The notes: a model not told the origin generated them from the sequence alone. A stretch of 64,000 nucleotides of DNA from Candidatus Thorarchaeota archaeon (GCA_963726195.1 CAVSBO010000016.1:96001-160000), one strand, 5' to 3'. Counted from the stretch's first letter, positions 9,563 to 52,824 are shown. Numbers and translations: made by a program.

Positions 9563-10797
9563 GTGATTAAGACGTACACGCTCAAGCATGGCCTCCACTT
9601 AGACGGGTTTCTCTTGGCTTACCGGGATGCGCTCAACAAGATGATCTCCAAAATCTGGGAGAACATCCGTTGGATAGAGAAGTCGAAGAAGAGCAGCAAC
9701 CAAGTGCGGGTATTCCCGTCAATCCCCAGCTATGCGTTCAAGAAGCGGATGCGGGGCGAATTCCTCAACGAGTGGGAGTATTCCGCGCACTGGATCGACT
9801 CCGCGCTGAAGACCGCGTTCTCTATCATCGACTCATGGAAGAAGAACTACAACAAGGGACAACGGAAGCGGAACAAGCCCGTTGTGAAGCGATTCTTCGT
9901 CCGGGTGAAACAGACATTGATGAAGGTTGAGAACGAACGGATGCGAATCTCGATTAAGCCGAATCAGTTCGTTTACGTAGACCTCTCCAAGCGGTACTTC
10001 CCACTGGACGGAAAAATCGGGGAACCGATCCTCACTGACACGAGACTGCACATCCCGATCACGCTTCCGGATGGTAAGCCAGACCCGAACGACGTGATCG
10101 GGTGGGACTCCAATATATTCTCCATCGACGGATACTCGGAGAGCCGCGGTTGGGTCAAGGTGGACATCAAGTCGTTGCACACCATTCACGTCACGTATGA
10201 CGACAAATTCAGGAGCATTAACCGGGTCTACGCCCGCAACAAGAAGGCGGGCAAGAAGCTCTATGCCAAGTACCGGGCACGGTGCAGGAACCGGGTGAAG
10301 GAATACTTGTGCGACGTTGCCAACCTGATGACCAAGGTTCCTGCAATCCATGGGTTCGAGAATCTGGAAAAGAAATACCTGTTCAAGAGCTATCGCCACC
10401 GCTGGAACCGCAATCTTGGTCACCGGATTGGCGGCAGCTCTACCAGCTCGTCAAGAATAAAGCCGAGACCGTCAAGGTGAATCCGGCATGGACATCGAAG
10501 CGCTGCAGCAGGTGCGGGGCAACCAACAAATCCCTGAGAGCTGAGAAGGTCTTCGAGTGCCCATCGTGCGGATTGAAAATCGATCGGCAGTTCAACGCGA
10601 GCGTCAACATCTACCTGAAGATGAGAGGAGTTTCACCGGAAGTGCCATGGTTCGATACCACGGTGCTCCCGGCCGGGTTGCCCTTGATGGGGGCAGAGAC
10701 GAGTGATGCCGATGAACTCGCGAGGCATTTCGATGAACTGATGAAGCCCCAAGTCTACGTAACTCTGTCAAAGACTACGCCGACTATAACCCACTGA
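9563..10797 (+). CDS. tnpB: IS607-type TnpB (frameshift at about 10423), RuvC-III DRQ variant
   Basis: Close paralogue of 43568..44788; GWDSN, GFENL, CSRCG/CPSCG, IDRQFNAS. Confidence 0.85.
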
Positions 10798-42455: not shown

Positions 42456-43507
42456 TTAGGTCTGCTACCATCTGGTATTCATGAGGGGCGCTCTCGCGAA
42501 CACGCTTCACTTGTCCTATTTCCAGTACTTCTCGTCCATTGCTCTTGATTAGCCCTGCAACTCTCTCGACCAGTTGCTGTTCAGGATTCTGCACCCCGAC
42601 AAATTCGTAATAGTGAACTATTCCGCCCTTCTTGACCGCTTGACAGGCCTGTCTCATGAATTGGAATGAATTCGAAGGATGGTTCATTATGACACGATCT
42701 GCATTCCGATTGAAGTTGTCCATAACGTAGTCGCGCGAATCCGCGACGACCGGAACGATGTCACCTTTGAGAACGATTCATCCTAATGCTCTGTTCCAAC
42801 AACTTGATGGCTTCGGGATTAATGTCGATGGCCACAATCTGCGAACTGCTGAGTCTGGCGATGTGCAACGCAAAACAGCCGACACCGGTGAACATGTCCA
42901 CGACCAGTTCGCCATCATTTACCTGCTTGGCTACCCTCTGATGTTCTTCAAGCAATCTGGGACTGAAGTAGGCAGCGGCCAAGTCTACAGCTATTCTGCA
43001 TCCATATTCCAGCTGCACCGTTGCTGTCTTGTTGTTACCCGCGAGGAATTCGTATTCTCGTGTCCTTGTTATGCCCGATACAGCTCCCTTCTTTGCGAGC
43101 ACCGTTGAGACACTCTTGTGTGCCGCCAGAAACGCTTGGCCTATCTGCTGCTTGTATTGCGACATCTCATCAGGGATTTCAAGCACCGCTATGTCCCCTA
43201 CCAAGTCGTACGCCCGGGGAAGTAGTCCAACCTCCTCCTCAGTCAACTTGCCACCCAGTGCGTCCTTGAGAGTCTTGGGAGTTCGCAAGACCGGGACAAA
43301 ACGCCTGACACCGGTTTCAAAGGCCTCACTTCCGACAATGCTGTGAATCTTCTGAGTCTCCAACTCCCCTAGTAGAGGAAAGAACAGCATGTCATCCTCT
43401 GATTCGATTTTGCAGTCGGTATCGAGCAGTCGTGCACGCAAGAGAGCCTTCCTGACTCTGTCTCCCAGACTCGCGGACACCTTAAGGAAAAACCTGTCAG
43501 GAGACAT
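42445..43507 (-). CDS. trm5: tRNA (guanine37-N1) methyltransferase Trm5 (frameshift at about 42772)
   Basis: YDLVGDIA, YFSPRL, DMFTGVG, DINP, DRVIMNHP, VHYY. Confidence 0.9.
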
Positions 43508-43567
43508 CGAACCGGACTATGGATAGATGCCTACAGAAACCTATCGGAAGTATCTTAGGGTTATAGT

Positions 43568-44788
43568 TTAGCCTTTCATTGGACATCTTAGATAAACTTG
43601 CGGCTTCACCAGTTCATCGAGATGCCTCGCGAGTTCATCGGCATCTCTCGTCTCCGCCGCTATCAAGGGTAACCCGGCCGGAAGTACTGCGGCATCGAAC
43701 CACGAAACTTCCGGTGAAACTCCTCTCATCTTTAGGTAAATGTTGATGCCCGCGTTGAACTGCCGGTCGATTTTCAATCCACATGACGGACACTCGAAGA
43801 CCTTCTCAGCTCTCAGGGATTTGTTTGTTGCCCCGCACCTACTGCAGCGCTTCGATGTCCATGCCGGATTTACCTCGATGGTCTCGGCTTTGTTCTTCAC
43901 GAGCTGGCAGAGTTGCCGCCAGTCCGCATGGTCAAGATTGCGGTTCCAGCGGTGTTGATGGTTCTTGAACAGGTATTTCTTCTCCAAATCCTCGAACCCG
44001 TGGATTGCGGGAACCTCTGTCATCTGGTCGGCAACGTGGCGCAGGAATTCCTTCACTCGGTTCCTGCACCGTGCGCGGTACTTTGCATAGAGCTTCTTGC
44101 CCGCCTTTTTGCTCCGTGCATAGACCCTGTTGATGTTTCTCAGCTTGTTGTCATACGTGACGTGGATGGTGTGCAACGGCTTGATGTCCACCTTGACCCA
44201 ACCACGACTCCTCGAATATCCATCGATGGAGAGCAAGTTGGAGTCCCACCCGACCATGTTCCTCTTGTCTGCCTCAGCATCCGGAAGTGTGATTGGGATG
44301 TGCACTTTAGTGTCGGTGAGGATCGGTTCTCCAATCTTCCCGTCCAGCGCAAAGTACCGCTTGGAGAGGTCGATGTAGACAAACTGATTCGGCTTGATTG
44401 AGATTCGCATCCGTTCGTTCTCAACCTTCATCAATGTTTGTTTCACCCGGACGAAGAACCGCTTCACGACGGGCTTGTTTCGCTTCCGCCATCCCTTGTT
44501 GTAGTTCTTCTTCCATGAGTCGATGATGGAGAACGCGGTCTTCAGTGCGGAGTCGATCCAGTGCGCGGAATACTCCCACCCGTCGAGGAATTCGCCCCGC
44601 ATCTGCTTCTTGAACGCATAGCTGGGGATTGACGGGAATACCCGCACCTGTTTGTCGCTCTTCTTCGGCTTCTCCGTCCAGTGGATGTTTTCCCAGATCT
44701 CGGAGATCATCTTGTTGAGCGCATCCCGATAGGCCAAGAAGAACCCATCTAAGCGGAGGCCATGCTTGAGCGTATATGTTTTAATCAC
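43568..44788 (-). CDS. tnpB: IS607-type TnpB, RuvC-III DRQ variant
   Basis: GWDSN, GFEDL, CSRCG/CPSCG, IDRQFNAG. Confidence 0.88.
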   Translation of the reverse strand: MIKTYTLKHGLRLDGFFLAYRDALNKMISEIWENIHWTEKPKKSDKQVRVFPSIPSYAFKKQMRGEFLDGWEYSAHWIDSALKTAFSIIDSWKKNYNKGWRKRNKPVVKRFFVRVKQTLMKVENERMRISIKPNQFVYIDLSKRYFALDGKIGEPILTDTKVHIPITLPDAEADKRNMVGWDSNLLSIDGYSRSRGWVKVDIKPLHTIHVTYDNKLRNINRVYARSKKAGKKLYAKYRARCRNRVKEFLRHVADQMTEVPAIHGFEDLEKKYLFKNHQHRWNRNLDHADWRQLCQLVKNKAETIEVNPAWTSKRCSRCGATNKSLRAEKVFECPSCGLKIDRQFNAGINIYLKMRGVSPEVSWFDAAVLPAGLPLIAAETRDADELARHLDELVKPQVYLRCPMKG

Positions 44789-44931
44789 TCGACATCATCT
44801 TTACCCACGATGATGCTCCTAGCGGCGTCGACCATCCGTTTCGACTTGTGGCTTCGCAAGCTGTGCGGCTTTCCCGAAAAGTGCGCGATGATCGCAATAA
44901 GGTCTCGGACGAGTTTCTCTCGTGGAGTGGT
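44785..44931 (-). pseudogene. C-terminal remnant of an IS607 serine-recombinase TnpA
   Basis: Manual frame TPREKLVRDLIAIIAHFSGKPHSLRSHKSKRMVDAARSII; its stop overlaps the tnpB GTG. Confidence 0.75.
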
Positions 44932-45098
44932 GTAGGCACCGCGTTGTTTTCATGCGTCCACTACGGGCCGTACGTTCTTTGAGGGAGTATATAAACCACG
45001 CACTGCGGAAGGCGTTCTCGTAATAAGAGCCTCCGTCACGTACTACGAAGTTGTATTTCTGGCTGCGGGCATGGCTCCAAATGCATTCTGTCCAGATA

Positions 45099-46271: not shown

Positions 46272-47492
46272 ATGAGAATTCTTCATGTCTGCGACAGCCT
46301 GAACCCAGCAGGGGTTGGGGGATACGAGTCATACTTGCATCATCTATCCCGAGTGTTCGCATCTGAAGGGCACGAATCGTTCATAGTGACTCAGTCGCCT
46401 GGTATTGAGTCGCCCGAGTCCATAACACAACCACATTGTCGACTGTTCCACCTTTCAGGCAATTTGCTGGAGGCCAGGAAGTGGGAATTCTTGTCGTTGC
46501 CTGAGGAGAGGAGGGCTTCAGCAGCAAAAAGCATGTTCAGTGAGAATGATGTCACTGCTGACGTTCAAATTTTGACAGGCCAACTCAGAACACTGGTCCG
46601 AGACCTGAACCCCGACGTAATCCATGCACACAGCACATACGTCGTCTTCAACAGAGTATTGGCAGAAGTGCGTCGTGACGGGATGCTTGCTGGGATACCG
46701 GTACTCGCGACAATCCACGGTCTTCCCAAAACTCTCGTCCTTCCGGACGGAAGAACAACAACCGACTACGAGCAGCTCGCTCAATCCTGTCCGTTTGATA
46801 CAATTACTGCGGTGAGCAAGTGCGTAGCGGTTGCTTTGCGTGAACACCTCCCCAAGGGGCTAGATGACTTGGTCCAAGTGCTCTACCTTGGGGTGGATAC
46901 ATCTGTCTTCCGACCTCAGATCCACGCGAACAAGCGCTGGGACTTGGCATTCTTTGGCAGAATTGAGCAGGTCAAGGCTGTAGACCTGTTGCCAAGCGTA
47001 TTATCGGCTCTAAGACTCCGCCTTTCGGAGATTCGTTTGGTAATTACCGGAGAAGGGTCATATCGAAGGACGCTCTTCGACGAATTCAAGAGAGAAGATG
47101 TTACAGATTTGGTAGACTATCTAGGCGTTGTGCCCATCGAGACGATTCCGAACCTTCTAAACAGTACCCGGGTCTTTCTTTATCCCTCAAGACAAGAAGC
47201 CCTTGGCCTATCATTGATTGAAGCAATGGCCTGTGGCGTTCCCGTAATAACCACGAATGTCTTCGGTCCCTCTGAGATAGTGACACACGCTCGTGACGGC
47301 ATCGCTGTGAGACCGGGAGATTCGATAGAGCTGTCCGAAGCAGTCCTAGAAGTACTCACTGACTCCCAACTGCGCTCCAGACTTGGACGGAATGCACGTA
47401 AGACCGTAGAGAAGCGATTCGACCTGAAGAAACACTCCGAGCAGTTGCTCTTGCTTTACCGTGGGTTAAGGCATGCTCGTCATCAATCATAA
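46272..47492 (+). CDS. GT4 glycosyltransferase
   Basis: GGYE, PDVIHAH, FGRIEQVK, EALGLSLIEAMACGVPVI. Confidence 0.92.
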   Translation: MRILHVCDSLNPAGVGGYESYLHHLSRVFASEGHESFIVTQSPGIESPESITQPHCRLFHLSGNLLEARKWEFLSLPEERRASAAKSMFSENDVTADVQILTGQLRTLVRDLNPDVIHAHSTYVVFNRVLAEVRRDGMLAGIPVLATIHGLPKTLVLPDGRTTTDYEQLAQSCPFDTITAVSKCVAVALREHLPKGLDDLVQVLYLGVDTSVFRPQIHANKRWDLAFFGRIEQVKAVDLLPSVLSALRLRLSEIRLVITGEGSYRRTLFDEFKREDVTDLVDYLGVVPIETIPNLLNSTRVFLYPSRQEALGLSLIEAMACGVPVITTNVFGPSEIVTHARDGIAVRPGDSIELSEAVLEVLTDSQLRSRLGRNARKTVEKRFDLKKHSEQLLLLYRGLRHARHQS

Positions 47493-47524
47493 GTCACTCA
47501 AGGGCACGCAAGGATATGTAACGG

Positions 47525-47663
47525 TGGCGGGCCAGGGGGGATTCGAACCCCCGACCAACAGGTTTCTCGGCCTCTCAGCGGATGCTGAATGATCTAAGAG
47601 CCTGTCGCTTTGGGCGGCCTTGGCTTTACAGCACATCGCTATACCTGGCTTAGCCACTGGCCC
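47525..47663 (-). tRNA. tRNA-Lys(CTT) with two introns (37/38 and D-arm, about 22/23)
   Basis: GGGCCAG acceptor, GCTA/TAGC D-stem, ACAGG-CTCTTA[31 nt]A-CCTGT, GGTTCGAATCC, CCA. Removing two 31-nt inserts gives 77 nt. Confidence 0.88.
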
Positions 47664-47866
47664 GGTGAGTTGGCATCTCGCCCATTTCTGGTTATAGAGA
47701 TTTCGGAGCATTCCCGCGACAATCAGGAAGTTGATTTCAAGACGGTTAGATTAGCAGTTCGCGGTCGCTCATTCATTCTCTCGTGTCCTATGTCTAGAGG
47801 AAGGCGTTTGTCACGAACTGTACTCAGCGTTTGCAGTAATGTTTCAGCCGGTTCTCTCGGTCTCCT

Positions 47867-49771
47867 TCATGGTGTTTCCCACCATCTCTCGAACTCCTGG
47901 CCCCTATGTTCTATTTCTGTGATTGCTTTCTCCGTTTTGATAGGTCTGCTTTTCAGAAATGTCTTCATCAGCTCCCTCTTTCTGATATCATTGGGTGGAG
48001 TGATTATGCCAAGCTTCGCAGTGTCCTTGACGCTTTTTGTTCGAGCATTCCAGGCCACACTCACTCTACCTGTGGCGGGGTAGTATCGGATCATATAGGG
48101 TTTCGTCTCGACAGCCACGCCCAAGCTCCGAGCAATCTCAGTTTCATCCATAATCAATCTGTTACGATTGCGTCCCACGATTTCTTGTAGATTGGCGGGA
48201 ATTCGGGCAGTCTCATTGTCCGAGTTCTCAGCCAACTCATGCAGCCGTCCCCACGATAGTGACCACGCTTTCTTCCCACGATCCCCATGTTGCCTGATAA
48301 GCCCTATTTCCTGTTCTCCGGCTTTTGGCTCGAATCCATATTTTTCTGCCTTATTCCCTGCATGCAGTGCGTTGGCACGAGTCCATATTACCTTTCCTTG
48401 ACCAACACATCCCTCTTGACATATCAGGTCCTCCATGTATGCTCGCCTGACTCTCTCGGAGCCCTCCGTGATGCTTGAGAAAAGGCCCGGATTCTGAAGA
48501 GTCCTATCGCCTGCTGGAATACCCAAGGACATCAATGCTATTCCTATGACAGAAGGAAAATGAGTCATGTAATGGCCTTGACCCTCGACATACCTTGGTG
48601 TGGGATCGATGTCTCCGAAGCGTCTGAAGCTCTCCACAACCCTATCGATTCGACTTATCTCGGGCTCGCCGTACTTGATTACCCCATTCGGTTCAATCGT
48701 GCAGTCTGAAACCACTGTTGCCGTAATCCTTGAAATTGCAATCTCACGTTCCTCTCGCCCGGGAAAGCGAGGGTTCTGAAGCCCACCTGGTCCACCACGT
48801 CCTGCAATCTTTGATATCTGGCCATTCAAGTCGGAAAGAGTCTTTCCTGAAATGTCATTCATCAGACTGACATGGTCTCCCCGAATTCGGTGAGTGCGCA
48901 CGTTAACGCAATTGGGTTCTACCGGGTCTGTCAATAGCTGGGGAGCCAGCTTGTCAAGACGCTTCAGGATTTCATCTCTACTTCGACCTTCTAGCCCCAG
49001 AGCACCTCCAAAATCAGTGATGTATCTGTTGAATGTCGTCACATCACGGAAACAATAATACAGGCTGCCATAGGCATTCTCAAGTCTAGTAGGAGTTAGG
49101 TCTGGTTTCCATAGATAGAGCGTTCCATCGTCCATTCCGTACCGAACACCCCCTTTCCTATCGAGGAACTCGTGAGTCTGATGGAGTGCCTGTCCAAGAG
49201 AGTGAACCTCCTCTGTTGACAGGGACGAACTCTCCTGAATGTCCATACGGAATATCCTCGATGATTCGGGTAACCTACGACTGAGGCTTTCCAAGGCACG
49301 AGAGAGACTATCCTTGTTCATGTCCCCGAAATCGGAAAACACCTGTCTTGACTCATTTCTGGATATTCTCTGAAGCCCCTTATTCGGCTCTCTTACACCC
49401 TCCTTTCGTTCCTTGAACTCTGTTCCTGTCTTCTCCGAGATATCCTCGATTCCAGCCCTCTCACCGAACTTCTGGGCAATCTTCTTCGACTTCTTCTCGG
49501 TAGCATCTTCTTGGTTCTCAGTCTCCTGAGATCTGAGACGCTCTCTGCCTGTCAAGACAGGTCTTCCGTTCATGTCGCCCCTCTGAGACAGGTGACCTTC
49601 CTTTGGCTCGACCCCCTCACTTCGTCTTCTAGGCGCTCTGCCATTGGTCTCCGACCGTCGTCTTACCTTGAACTCGTCTGCTATTCGACTTGATTCTGTT
49701 TCGGCCAGTTTCTGCCGGTCGGTGTTATCTCTCGGTTGTCGGGACTCCTTAGGTTGCAGTCGTCTACTCAC
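47867..49771 (-). CDS. Large protein with charged low-complexity N-terminus and C-terminal LAGLIDADG-like nuclease fold
   Basis: Two degenerate motifs, ISRITATVVSDCTI and RRAYMEDLICQEGCV, with LMSLGIPAGDRT between them. Confidence 0.6.
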   Translation of the reverse strand: MSRRLQPKESRQPRDNTDRQKLAETESSRIADEFKVRRRSETNGRAPRRRSEGVEPKEGHLSQRGDMNGRPVLTGRERLRSQETENQEDATEKKSKKIAQKFGERAGIEDISEKTGTEFKERKEGVREPNKGLQRISRNESRQVFSDFGDMNKDSLSRALESLSRRLPESSRIFRMDIQESSSLSTEEVHSLGQALHQTHEFLDRKGGVRYGMDDGTLYLWKPDLTPTRLENAYGSLYYCFRDVTTFNRYITDFGGALGLEGRSRDEILKRLDKLAPQLLTDPVEPNCVNVRTHRIRGDHVSLMNDISGKTLSDLNGQISKIAGRGGPGGLQNPRFPGREEREIAISRITATVVSDCTIEPNGVIKYGEPEISRIDRVVESFRRFGDIDPTPRYVEGQGHYMTHFPSVIGIALMSLGIPAGDRTLQNPGLFSSITEGSERVRRAYMEDLICQEGCVGQGKVIWTRANALHAGNKAEKYGFEPKAGEQEIGLIRQHGDRGKKAWSLSWGRLHELAENSDNETARIPANLQEIVGRNRNRLIMDETEIARSLGVAVETKPYMIRYYPATGRVSVAWNARTKSVKDTAKLGIITPPNDIRKRELMKTFLKSRPIKTEKAITEIEHRGQEFERWWETP

Positions 49772-50150
49772 CCTCCTGTACCGATTGCTTGTTGTGAAAT
49801 GCCCTGAACTTCTCAGTTATGGTGTTTGATAGTTCTTCAGCGTGCTCCTGCACCCCCGCACCTAGGTCACTCCAATGGCCACCTGAACTCTTTGTCGTGG
49901 TATCCTCTTTCTGTGCCAGCTGGAGTTTCCAACGCATGGACCTTGATAGTTGTTCAATTCGGGACTCCTCCTCTGTCATATCTTGAGGGAGCAGTCTTCT
50001 GCGATTCGGGTCATCTCTCCTCACAATGACAATGTTCCTTGCAATCTCCTTTGCAAGCATGTGGGTCCGCTCATCTTCTTTGGACTCTCTTGCCGAAGCA
50101 ACCCGTTCTGCTACACCAGCTCTGTCGGCGGGCACAAACTCAGGAGGCAT
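49764..50150 (-). CDS. Hypothetical charged helical protein
   Basis: Overlaps both neighbouring genes, consistent with translational coupling. Confidence 0.55.
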   Translation of the reverse strand: MPPEFVPADRAGVAERVASARESKEDERTHMLAKEIARNIVIVRRDDPNRRRLLPQDMTEEESRIEQLSRSMRWKLQLAQKEDTTTKSSGGHWSDLGAGVQEHAEELSNTITEKFRAFHNKQSVQEGE

Positions 50151-52824
50151 GAAGACTCCTTCTTCGGTCCTTGCTCAGAGGGTTTTCATTCAGGAGATTC
50201 GAGATAAGTGCGAAGTCGGGCTGTCGCGGTGGAGGACCGCACAAGGCAGACGCAAGTTCAACTATGGTGAAAGCTGTCTCGAACGGGGTTATTCGAACAT
50301 AGGGCATGTGTAAGGCATAGTGCGCGACCAGCTCTTCAAGCATGGTTGACTCCGGATTTTCGACGCACTCTGCAAGAGATTCTTCGTACAAGTTACGAAA
50401 GGCCTTTGTTTGGACCATGTCTCGAATCTGTGCCACAGACCTGTCGCCATCCTGTTCGGAATCCTCTTGTGCCATGCGACGCCTTAGAACAGGAATGGTT
50501 GGGGTCTTGGCAAACTCAGGATGATGCGCGTAGAAGTCAAGCATCCGCCTCTTCACGTCAGCATCAGTCCAAACCCTGTTCATCTCTGGGTAGTAGTCCG
50601 GGTCGTGAATGACTCTCACCTTTGCTGGAACTATGCTCGATGGCTCCGCAATCACAGCTTCTCCTGTCTGGAGAGCGGGAATGTGCGCTTTCTGTTCATC
50701 ATTCGAGTTTGTTTCGGCAGCCATGAGCTCGATGTCATCAGGACTCGTGAGCTTGTGCACGATCCGTGTGTGGCAGTTCTTTATCGCATCCCGGGCAAGG
50801 CGAGTCGGTATCTGCTCGCACAGAACAACACCCAATCCATAGCTCTTGCTTCAGCAATCATGTTGACGAACTGGTTGACCACCTGACGCTTGGCCATCGC
50901 ATGCTCGCCCATGTCTAGAGTCTTCGGCAACTCCTCCAAGACACGGTGTGCCTCATCTACGACAAGGAGAGGCTCGTAATCTGTCCGACGGGCCGAGCTG
51001 CCTGAAGTACTCGTAGACTCGCACGAGAAGCAGGCTGAGCACGAATGCCTTGAACTCGGGGTCAGTGAGGGGTTCGAGTTCGATGATTGTAGGCTTCGAT
51101 ATGATTTCGGACATGGGCAGGTTGCTTACCGTGTTGAATATCGCAGCTCGTGCCGGACTGCATAGGTCTTCGGCCCTCGCGATTAGCGCGCCATGGAAAT
51201 CCTGAGACAACTCAGAGCCATACTGCAAGACCTCCTCGCAATACCTGTCAACCTCTTCACGGAAGGAGTCGAGAGTGATGACATTGCCACGGACTTCGTT
51301 CACGGGGTCCCAGCCGTTGTGAATGTAGGTTTCTTCAAGCATCCTTCGGACATGGTTTGCCAACATACCGTAGAGCGGCCATGCAGCCACAAAACAGGAG
51401 TAAAGGAAGCCGATATGGGACTGTACTGGTACGCCCGGCTCAGGCATGAAGGGATTATCCCGCCAAGGTGCAATGCTCTCCTGTCCAACAGTGAAGAGCC
51501 TCATCTCAGGAATAACTCCAAGCAGAATGCGAGCATCTGTCTTGACTGGTTCGATGATCAGACTAGGTACGCCATTCTTCCATGCGTCGATGATTAACCT
51601 GTTCTTGGATGTGCTCTTTCCGGTGCCTGTCTTCCCAACGATTGTCACATGATATCGGAGAGATTCGAGCTCGATTGTCTTGAGATAACGAGGGTCTGGA
51701 GAGTCTAGGCGGTAAGGCTGGCCCAAGACAACCTTGCCGGGCTGAAAGGCTACGTCCTGCGAACCTCTCCCGACCGACTGACTGCCGGCAGTTGTGAAGG
51801 ATGCCGGGCTTGAAGACGCAAGGCCGAGCTCAATACTAGGAATCTCGAACAGACTGACTGCTTCGGCAGGTGTGAGGAGCGTCGCAGGAAGTTGCCCCTT
51901 GCCCACGAGCAATCTGCGCAGAATCTCAAGAGCCTTCGTTCCTTTGAAGCGATTGACTCTCATCTGTTGTTTACTGTCAGCAGAGGATATGGTGGAGAGT
52001 AGTACGCCGACTGCACGGTCCAGAGCCGTCCCGGCATTCTCCGAACCCCAGAAGGCAAGCGCTACCTGACAAGCGAGAACTCTTCCAGACTGCATCCTCT
52101 GATATGTTGCCTCGTGCGCTGATGAAAGCCTCATGGAGTCTACATCAACCTTGGACCCACTCTCTTGCGACCGGAGCAATCCTGAGCTGCCACGCTGACG
52201 TTGCGACCTTTCCAAGGCCGACTTGTATCGCTTTTTCGACAAATAGCGAACAAGGTACTCAGGCCTTCTCGGCCGTGCCGAGACCTGATACAATGCCGTA
52301 CCGGGATATTGAGCCATGATGTGAGCAAGTCCGTTCAACGGCTGATCTGCTGGCTTAGGCACTCCTTTCACGACAACAATTTCGCATGGTAACTCAAGAG
52401 GGGGCAGAGAGTCAAAGACGTGTGCTATCTGGAAATCAGGGAACTGTGCCAAGAACGCCGACTCTATGGCGCTCACACTTGGTTGGCTGCGCATCCCTCC
52501 ATAGAGCAGGCGGATGTTACCAGCGTTTGCCTCAAATCTGAAGTGTACAGACAGATTGGCAAACATCAAGGCACCGAGGAAACGCTCAAACTTAGCTCTC
52601 CTGCCTGCAGAACCATGTCCGTCCGCTTGCTCGTGGCGTGGAGACTCTGTTAGGACGATATACCCACGAGGTATCTTTTCGATCCTAGCACCCACGGTTG
52701 CGATTCTTCTTGACACATCGCTCCTGACTCTCAAGAGTAGGTGGCGCTCATCCCTAAATAACGCCACAGGAGAGGCCGTGTTGCGGTTAAGGTAGTCCAA
52801 CCACATAATCATCTCTCTTGCCAA
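50140..52824 (-). CDS. HerA/VirB4/TraD-like (DUF87) ATPase with long N-terminal domain (frameshifts at about 50970 and 50845)
   Basis: GKTGTGKS Walker A, reconstructed LLVVDEAHRV Walker B, and EARSYGLGVVLCEQIP. Confidence 0.85.

Follow-up and report, generated by a model that had tools for sequence, protein, structure and literature searches.

An ATPase and a partner with a LAGLIDADG-type tip form an undescribed gene pair, present as a damaged copy at the tRNA-Tyr edge of a Thorarchaeota island

We analyzed a stretch of 64,000 nucleotides from a Candidatus Thorarchaeota archaeon (GCA_963726195.1 CAVSBO010000016.1:96001-160000; referred to as the window), focusing on the minus-strand genes at 47867-52824. 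An earlier note on this DNA had described three intact overlapping genes: a VirB4/HerA-like ATPase, a small helical protein and a LAGLIDADG-fold protein. Homologues support both the coordinates and the reality of the genes (E-values of 1e-113 to 1e-274 for the last gene and reaching 1e-236 for the ATPase), but the assembly shows four minus-strand open reading frames (ORFs) that represent two broken genes. One encodes the ATPase and the other a large partner protein that ends in a homing-endonuclease domain. Together they constitute an undescribed gene pair of Asgard archaea, of which the window carries a damaged copy. Our literature searches on LAGLIDADG proteins and HerA, VirB4 or Asgard archaea yielded no published description of the pairing. 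The parts of the module are the following:

50953-52824, minus strand: first ATPase ORF, 623 amino acids as listed, with homology beginning near residue 48; N-terminal domain of about 350 amino acids and P-loop
51613-51636, minus strand: Walker A motif GKTGTGKS, within the first ATPase ORF
50836-50972, minus strand: out-of-frame ATPase stretch of 47 codons, near-identical to the relatives P0021 and P0022 when read in its own frame
50946-50969, minus strand: Walker B motif LLVVDEAH, out of frame with both ATPase ORFs
50140-50835, minus strand: last ATPase ORF, 231 amino acids; end of the HerA/VirB4-type core and a helical C-terminal extension of about 130 amino acids
49764-50150, minus strand: ORF of 128 amino acids, N-terminal piece of the partner, beginning with an ATG that overlaps the stop of the ATPase
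47867-49771, minus strand: rest of the partner, 634 amino acids
about 49292-49771, minus strand: charged low-complexity region of the partner
about 48764-49147, minus strand: conserved partner domain of about 125 amino acids (residues ~209-336), ahead of the nuclease fold
about 47903-48763, minus strand: two-domain LAGLIDADG fold of the partner (residues ~337-623)
48692-48715, minus strand: LAGLIDADG motif 1, VVSDCTIE (D356)
48401-48427, minus strand: LAGLIDADG motif 2, LICQEGCVG (E453)
47726-47866, minus strand: possible remnant, about 46 amino acids, of a third gene (c2, see below); weak match, E 0.19 among 116 frames searched

As assembled, this copy is broken in at least three places. The first ATPase ORF stops at a premature TGA that is the product of a +1 shift (an extra base near 50970), and a −1 shift (a missing base near 50841) follows only about 130 bases away. 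The intact relatives P0021 and P0022 are uninterrupted over 850-870 amino acids. With two frameshifts in the ATPase, a split partner and at most a remnant of the third gene, the unit in the window is probably no longer functional. Alternatively, the frameshifts could be errors in the assembly consensus, in which case the window would truly encode an intact ATPase and an intact partner of about 760 amino acids. We take this alternative seriously and rate it at somewhat less than an even chance. It agrees with the close spacing of the two ATPase shifts, with the out-of-frame Walker B stretch still being almost identical to that of the relatives, and with the presence of other frameshifts, in both genes, in a 99%-identical assembly (P0020 and P0001, on an 11,986-bp contig). 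It is opposed by the clustering of the lesions in one genomic island (described below) while long ORFs tile the remaining window, by the similarly broken state of the adjoining cassette, by the fragmentation of a paralogue elsewhere in this genome, and by the position of the ATPase shifts away from homopolymer runs.

The ORF of 128 amino acids had been proposed to be an adaptor gene of its own. We instead consider it to be the N-terminal piece of the partner, because it has no stand-alone homologue, it aligns to partner starts and its ATG lies over the ATPase stop, the position at which the partner gene starts in other loci. In none of the 60-odd related loci does it have a homologue as a separate gene, which rules out a conserved adaptor. 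It matches the first ~125 residues of the partners at L089 and L090, the loci with the closest ATPase relatives (tblastn E 4e-6), and has in common with them the start (M/V/L)PP(E/S)FVP (MPPEFVP...) and the motif TITEKFRAF/AIADKFRNR/TIAEAFRF. The ORF of 634 amino acids aligns to the partners of L067 and L070 from their residue 232 on. Judged from these alignments, the two ORFs are one partner gene of about 760 amino acids, split by a frame change near 49764-49816. The N-terminal piece is specific to the ATPase lineage.

The charged, low-complexity start that the earlier note had seen in the last gene is evident in its composition: the first 200 amino acids are 14% arginine, 13% glutamate and 12% serine. 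Pfam, NCBIfam and PADLOC gave no accepted match for the 634- or the 128-residue ORF, in the case of the window protein at E-values up to 1. The lone Pfam line, to a Leucyl-specific domain in the charged region (E 4e-4), is under its cut-off and was dismissed. A sequence search of the PDB with the partner family profile returned low-complexity proteins only, and no curated LAGLIDADG sequence model matches the window protein.

Nineteen homologues, all from Thorarchaeota where the source is named, share a C-terminal region of about 420 amino acids behind variable charged N-termini. An AlphaFold2 (AF2) model of this region, built from the alignment of the 19 homologues, reached a predicted local distance difference test score (pLDDT) of 90.3 and a predicted template-modelling score (pTM) of 0.87. 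The model consists of two alpha-beta-beta-alpha-beta-beta-alpha domains packed via two motif helices, and its top structural matches are all LAGLIDADG proteins (Foldseek E 5e-6). With VIA, the best match is the endonuclease domain of the TliVMA intein (7qsu; Z 17.1, root-mean-square deviation (rmsd) 2.6 over 189 residues), followed by PI-PfuI (1dq3; Z 16.6), I-Tsp061I (2dch; Z 16.0), WhiA (Z 15.4) and I-DmoI (2vs8; Z 13.6). The fold proposed from sequence is thus returned by the model and by both structural comparisons, and the two degenerate motifs, SDC (D356) and QEG (E453), are both found. Position 356 is an aspartate in all 37 diverged copies compared; position 453 is an aspartate in 28 and a glutamate in nine, including the copy in the window. 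This conservation of the acidic residue that closes each motif helix argues for a working metal site, unlike in WhiA. The model points to a predicted monomeric LAGLIDADG endonuclease of two domains, in which both catalytic acidic residues are kept, at the tip of the window partner. Its gene is free-standing, borne by neither an intron nor an intein, as had been noted.

The ATPase pieces in the window score 20.2 bits against DUF87 (cut-off 23.2) and match the PADLOC HerA models weakly (E 2.7e-6). Curated HerA models are not matched above their cut-offs, and the models of conjugative ATPases stay far under theirs (TraC, 11.2 bits against 567; CedD, 12-18 against 600; VirB4_plasma, 8.4 against 590). 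Intact relatives bear precomputed PF05872 or PF01935 assignments. An AlphaFold model of the intact relative P0021 (pLDDT 84) contains a core at residues ~300-720. In VIA comparisons, this core matches the C-terminal domain of VirB4 (4ag5) with Z 31.9 (rmsd 2.9, 350 residues), DndH-C with Z 31.4, HerA with Z 28.5 and TrwB with Z 23.0. The scores for the HerA proteins of defense complexes are 24.2 for HerA-DUF, 22.5 for TdpAB and 20.4 for Nezha HerA-Sir2. The best Foldseek match of the P0021 model is full-length TrwK/VirB4 (E 3.5e-17; Foldseek TM 0.42-0.47), which VIA aligns loosely over 578 residues (full-length TrwK, Z 17.1, rmsd 6.7). These matches support the earlier assignment, and the product of the first gene is, as modelled, a putative motor ATPase of the hexameric type from the VirB4/HerA clade. 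The domain ahead of its P-loop, for which about 350 amino acids had been given, comprises about 350-390. About half of the ATPase relatives, those of more than 1000 amino acids, have about four predicted N-terminal membrane helices. None are predicted in the ATPase type found in the window, which is therefore of the soluble type.

The linkage of the two genes that had been expected in other genomes is observed. Among 40 nuclease loci fetched from other genomes, the ATPase lies directly upstream of the nuclease gene and overlaps it in 15, whereas 21 nuclease genes are solitary and four loci are cut by contig ends. All three copies in the genome under study have the ATPase upstream. We took 20 further ATPase loci, namely those without a match to the nuclease type of the window (type A) on the same contig. 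Wherever these loci extend downstream, the ATPase gene is overlapped by an ORF of 570-1914 amino acids with a charged N-terminus; taking all loci together, a large charged partner follows the ATPase in 34 out of 34 ATPase loci having downstream sequence. The second gene is translationally coupled to the first.

The partners differ in their C-terminal tips, in line with the earlier suggestion that conserved ATPases might be followed by variable cargo. Besides type A, we found a second LAGLIDADG lineage with canonical motifs (type B), which matches LAGLIDADG_3 (PF14528) at 25-36 bits (cut-off 22.5), a tip with seven NUMOD3 repeats and an HNH domain, arrays of helix-turn-helix (HTH) domains, and two unassigned types. 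NurA, SIR2 or DUF4297 was not found as a partner in any of the 34 ATPase loci. The profiles of type A and type B align with an hhalign probability of 0.25%, which is not significant although both motifs line up, and we treated the two as separate LAGLIDADG lineages. Tip types are scattered on a quick maximum-likelihood tree of the ATPases, with 15 changes against a mean of 16.7 for shuffled tips, a count in which the rows with an 'unknown' tip include loci cut by contig ends. The window ATPase groups with those of L089 and L090, which have type-B tips, and of L067 and L070, which have type-A tips. The swap is clearest at L088 and L092, where the ATPases are near-identical and the partners share 82% identity across their first ~700 residues, beyond which they are unrelated (type A in one, type B in the other). 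A third gene of about 200 amino acids, c2, has no Pfam match and is found behind the type-A tip at 16 of 43 loci; it occurs in none of the 14 loci with other tips. Across 37 ATPase loci, clustering of the neighbors, as opposed to a search with family models, yielded no conserved gene family besides the partner and c2.

The nuclease family is present in several copies per genome and has a patchy distribution. Counting the paralogues, as the earlier note had suggested, gave matches in 52 of 87 Thorarchaeia genomes, up to at least eight per genome and many of them fragments, and in none of three genomes of the same genus. The ATPase is present in 42 of the 87 genomes of the class; across 151 sampled genomes of the phylum, it is mostly found in this family, together with six genomes of three other families. 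Searching 1.84 billion representatives with the nuclease profile (E-values up to 1e-3) gave 430 clusters at 50% identity, with the domain always C-terminal. No relative was found among the IMG/VR viral contigs. In the genome under study, the pair is present in three copies, in the window and on contigs C19 and C10. The copy on C19 is intact, with an ATPase of 1042 amino acids as called (1056 from stop to stop), which is of the type with membrane helices, a partner of 1219 (1228 from stop to stop) and the third gene. The copy on C10 (C10:1-4745) has an ATPase truncated by the contig start, a partner fragmented into three ORFs and an intact third gene; 39 bp downstream of this copy is a tRNA-Val gene. 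Downstream of the intact copy, C19:8197-9831 holds an ORF of 280 amino acids with an HTH-like start and another of 152 amino acids, which we took for a putative toxin-antitoxin-like pair.

The module in the window lies at the edge of an island that is missing from three genomes of the same genus (G022, G023 and G024), all of which have single-copy empty sites. The features of the island and its border are the following:

47528-47663, minus strand: intron-containing tRNA-Tyr gene, 136 nucleotides (Rfam tRNA, 46.2 bits; ARAGORN with introns allowed)
47664-59626: island of 11,963 bp (11.96 kb), not present in G022, G023 and G024
47686-47710, minus strand: promoter-like stretch ggttatagagatttcgg at the island's inner end, seen on direct inspection of the sequences
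55133-57236, plus strand: second HerA-type ATPase, in pieces (DUF87, 55133-55762; HerA_C, 56111-56698; a further piece, 56655-57236)

The left boundary of the island is the exact 5' end of the tRNA-Tyr gene, and the module adjoins this edge. The tRNA gene was missed by ARAGORN with default settings and detected by Rfam and by ARAGORN with introns allowed; an ORF of 74 amino acids that overlaps it (47487-47711) is probably spurious. A direct repeat of 10 bp, CCACTGGCCC on the plus strand, corresponding to tRNA positions 1-10, is present at 47654-47663 and at 59627-59636, and the empty sites have one copy. The copy at 59627-59636 adjoins the native upstream region of the tRNA-Tyr gene. The stretch ggttatagagatttcgg resembles the upstream region native to tRNA-Tyr in G023 and G024 (gtttatagagattgcgg) and is at an equal distance from the tRNA. 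It is thus likely, judging from this resemblance, that the island supplies a substitute promoter for the tRNA gene.

Apart from the module, the island contains a broken methylase/glycosylase/HerA-NurA cassette. The second HerA-type ATPase belongs to this adjoining cassette; it is divergent from that of the module and lies in at least three ORFs. We found no integrase: there is no long ORF in the 58.7-59.6 kb region, where an ORF of 102 amino acids (59188-59496) is without a Pfam match, and no scanned ORF of the window's island matched a recombinase. The contig with the 99%-identical copies of ATPase and partner, at 11,986 bp, has nearly the length of the island, which may mean that in that sample the island assembles separately from its flanks, for instance because only part of the population carries it or because it exists in an excised form.

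Just outside the island there is a separate insertion of TnpB only. A TnpB gene (ORF 43568-44788, with Cas12f1-like TNB and OrfB_IS605 domains) lies inside a 1.57-kb segment (43523-45095) that is not present in G022, where its flanks are 64 bp apart. Close to this segment, a TRM5/TYW2-like ORF (42761-43507, minus strand) ends 84 positions into the methyltransferase domain, which has 164.

Proximity to tRNA genes is a recurrent property of the module. Sequence extends past the module at 53 related loci. In 10 of these, a tRNA gene is found between −18 and +207 bp from the module's downstream end, with eight tRNA species represented, where 0.23-0.45 loci were expected (Poisson P about 1e-10 or lower). 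Solitary nuclease genes adjoin tRNA genes as well. At L104, an exact repeat of 33 bp of the 3' end of tRNA-Gln (795-827 and 9754-9786) brackets 8.96 kb with the module inside. This stretch holds a partner of the HTH-array type, its ATPase and an ORF of 648 amino acids without a Pfam match; no integrase was found in it, and three of its ORFs had no Pfam match. L104 is the one clear case of long att-like repeats around 14 tRNA-adjacent loci, most of the others having none of at least 12 bp. In two genomes with a type-B module (loci L097:3695-4087 and L106:3271-3678), the module is followed by an ORF of about 131-136 amino acids, the last ~40 residues of which match Urocanase_N positions 1-44. 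This ORF overlaps the urocanase ORF, which begins at profile position 36 in another frame. At these loci, a housekeeping gene has the module next to its 5' end, and the start of this gene may have been duplicated.

The window stretch is best read as a degraded version of a unit of two genes, with an optional third, that forms the tRNA-proximal edge of integrase-free islands of Thorarchaeia. Our favored explanation for the pair, which we hold tentatively and at slightly less than an even chance, is that it makes up the mobility core of homing islands that have no integrase, the ATPase acting as a DNA motor tethered to its partner. We favor homing because the tips are homing-endonuclease or site-specific DNA-binding modules, because the module holds the place on the tRNA side that is usually an integrase's, and because the islands vary between close relatives, with clean empty sites and frequent decay of the copies. 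We infer the cutting by the nuclease, its target and the role of the motor. In such a mechanism, the targets would be tRNA or housekeeping genes: in an island-free genome, the nuclease tip would cut a conserved site at the end of such a gene, and the island would be copied in through recombinational repair. A replacement gene end or promoter would arrive with the island, so that the target gene would stay in working order. The ATPase, tethered via the N-terminal piece of the partner, would translocate DNA, either in processing the break or in moving the DNA. In its full form, this proposal amounts to a new class of integrase-free mobile islands in Asgard archaea, in which an exchangeable homing tip picks one end of a tRNA gene or a housekeeping gene, a tethered VirB4/HerA motor assists and the island brings a substitute gene end or promoter. 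We regard this full form as possible and think that the odds are against it. The translocase-plus-cargo module proposed in the earlier note fares unevenly: its option of a mobile-element core gains from the tRNA edge, the clean empty sites and the lack of a detected integrase, whereas its option of polymorphic-toxin delivery is weakened, as discussed below.

Several observations weigh against homing. To our knowledge, classic homing endonucleases need no ATPase, no charged linker of 150-900 amino acids and no membrane anchor. LAGLIDADG enzymes leave overhangs of 4 nucleotides, to which the 10-bp repeat bears no resemblance; the repeat would also fit the core site of a recombinase, and an integrase could have been lost, could have decayed or could act in trans. 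The hairpin that follows motif 1 and contacts the DNA (TIEPNGVIKY/HLKANGTLEY) is rather conserved though the copies sit at different tRNA genes, and no nuclease domain was recognized in the HTH-array tips. The statistic for tRNA adjacency is overstated because some loci are related and thus not independent. Finally, some loci adjoin restriction-modification, AbiE or PLD-nuclease genes, as defense systems do.

This last observation leads to the strongest of the other explanations, which we nevertheless consider unlikely: that the pair is an anti-virus defense system of the kind formed by HerA and a nuclease (SIR2-HerA, DUF4297-HerA, TdpAB, HerA-NurA). The ATPase ring would sense foreign DNA or load onto it and activate the tethered nuclease, and the variation of the tips would reflect arms-race pressure. 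The matches of the ATPase core to HerA-DUF, TdpAB, Nezha and DndH-C, the weak PADLOC HerA matches, the patchy distribution and the variation of the effector on a conserved ATPase are all as such a system would have them, as are HsdS/HsdM, AbiEii, PLD nuclease and NYN genes among the neighbors and a methylase-HerA-NurA cassette within the same island. However, homing-type tips (LAGLIDADG, or NUMOD3 with HNH) and HTH arrays without a recognized nuclease would be unusual effectors, half of the ATPases have a membrane anchor, many nuclease genes are solitary, and it is the module itself, not an integrase, that adjoins the tRNA gene.

Export of the partner as a polymorphic toxin is improbable. Here, the ATPase would be a pump like the FtsK/HerA-like ATPase of type VII secretion, the nuclease tip the toxin and c2 the immunity protein. 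Such a system would account for the conserved N-terminal and replaced C-terminal parts of the partner (L088 and L092), for the restriction of c2 to the type-A tip (16 loci against none of 14) and for the membrane helices on about half of the ATPases. Nevertheless, no other secretion genes are conserved nearby, the ATPase of the window type is soluble, 27 of the 43 type-A loci lack c2 (the window included), and LAGLIDADG enzymes are too site-specific to make good toxins. The position at the tRNA edge would also be left without an explanation. We find it still harder to believe in a minimal DNA-transfer apparatus (conjugation-like or Ced-like) in which the VirB4-type ATPase pumps DNA that the partner recognizes and nicks in place of a relaxase: TrwK/VirB4 proteins are the best whole-length structural matches, membrane-anchored forms of the ATPase exist, the partner is a putative site-specific DNA-binding or DNA-cutting protein and such transfer would be compatible with homing as the element's route to new cells, but no genes for a pilin, a channel (VirB6/CedA-like) or a coupling protein are conserved alongside, the VirB4, TraC and CedD models score far under their cut-offs and the window ATPase has no membrane helices.

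If the homing explanation is true, the range of homing endonucleases would extend beyond introns, inteins and small free-standing genes, and they could also serve as the site-choosing head of multi-kilobase islands that carry defense cassettes, assisted by an obligatory motor ATPase. This would represent a new route for the gain and loss of accessory DNA in archaea, in the lineage closest to eukaryotes, and would provide a family of natural LAGLIDADG scaffolds whose specificity modules can be exchanged. Under the other explanations, too, the pair of ATPase and partner is undescribed and, with its 430 clusters, abundant.

The module shares features with several known systems. HerA-NurA acts in the resection of breaks in archaea, and Nezha (SIR2-HerA), DUF4297-HerA and TdpAB are defense complexes. 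As in these pairs, an ATPase of the FtsK/HerA superfamily (core Z of 20-28) is encoded beside a nuclease, and the two probably act together. The partner in the module is, however, of the homing type with a swappable tip, not NurA, SIR2 or DUF4297, and the ATPase has a long N-terminal domain, possibly VirB4-like, and is membrane-anchored in half of the relatives. VirB4 ATPases (TrwK, TraC, CedB-like) provide the best full-length structural matches, have a similar domain order and resemble some module relatives in their N-terminal membrane helices, as in VirB3-VirB4 fusions; unlike them, the module has no secretion genes nearby and stays under the cut-offs of the VirB4, TraC and CedD models. With polymorphic toxins, such as the LXG proteins exported with the EssC ATPase, the module shares an N-terminal part that is kept with the ATPase, a C-terminal part that is replaced and, in some cases, a small downstream gene specific to the tip. 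It differs from them in its site-specific, homing-type tips, in its lack of a secretion apparatus and in the adjacency of its loci to tRNA genes.

The archaeal monomeric LAGLIDADG homing endonucleases (I-Tsp061I, I-DmoI, PI-PfuI and TliVMA) have the same two-domain fold (Z 13.6-17.1), with interface helices that each end in an acidic residue, and resemble the module in having a free-standing gene beside a conserved RNA gene. In contrast to these enzymes, the domain in the module ends a protein of 630-1500 amino acids, behind a charged linker and a domain of about 125 amino acids, its gene comes with an obligately coupled motor ATPase in many loci, and this type of domain has no Pfam LAGLIDADG match and sits in neither an intron nor an intein. 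The closest parallels in genomic position are islands that target tRNA genes and mobile endonuclease ORFs that bring a replacement gene end. The module's islands differ from these in that no integrase was found here, in that the repeat is only 10 bp and in that the unit includes a motor ATPase, and they share with them the insertion at the exact end of a tRNA gene, the short repeat and a likely substitute promoter that would keep the gene usable. As in tRNA islands that carry an integrase, both ends bear a directly repeated portion of the tRNA gene, of 10 bp in the window and of 33 bp at L104.

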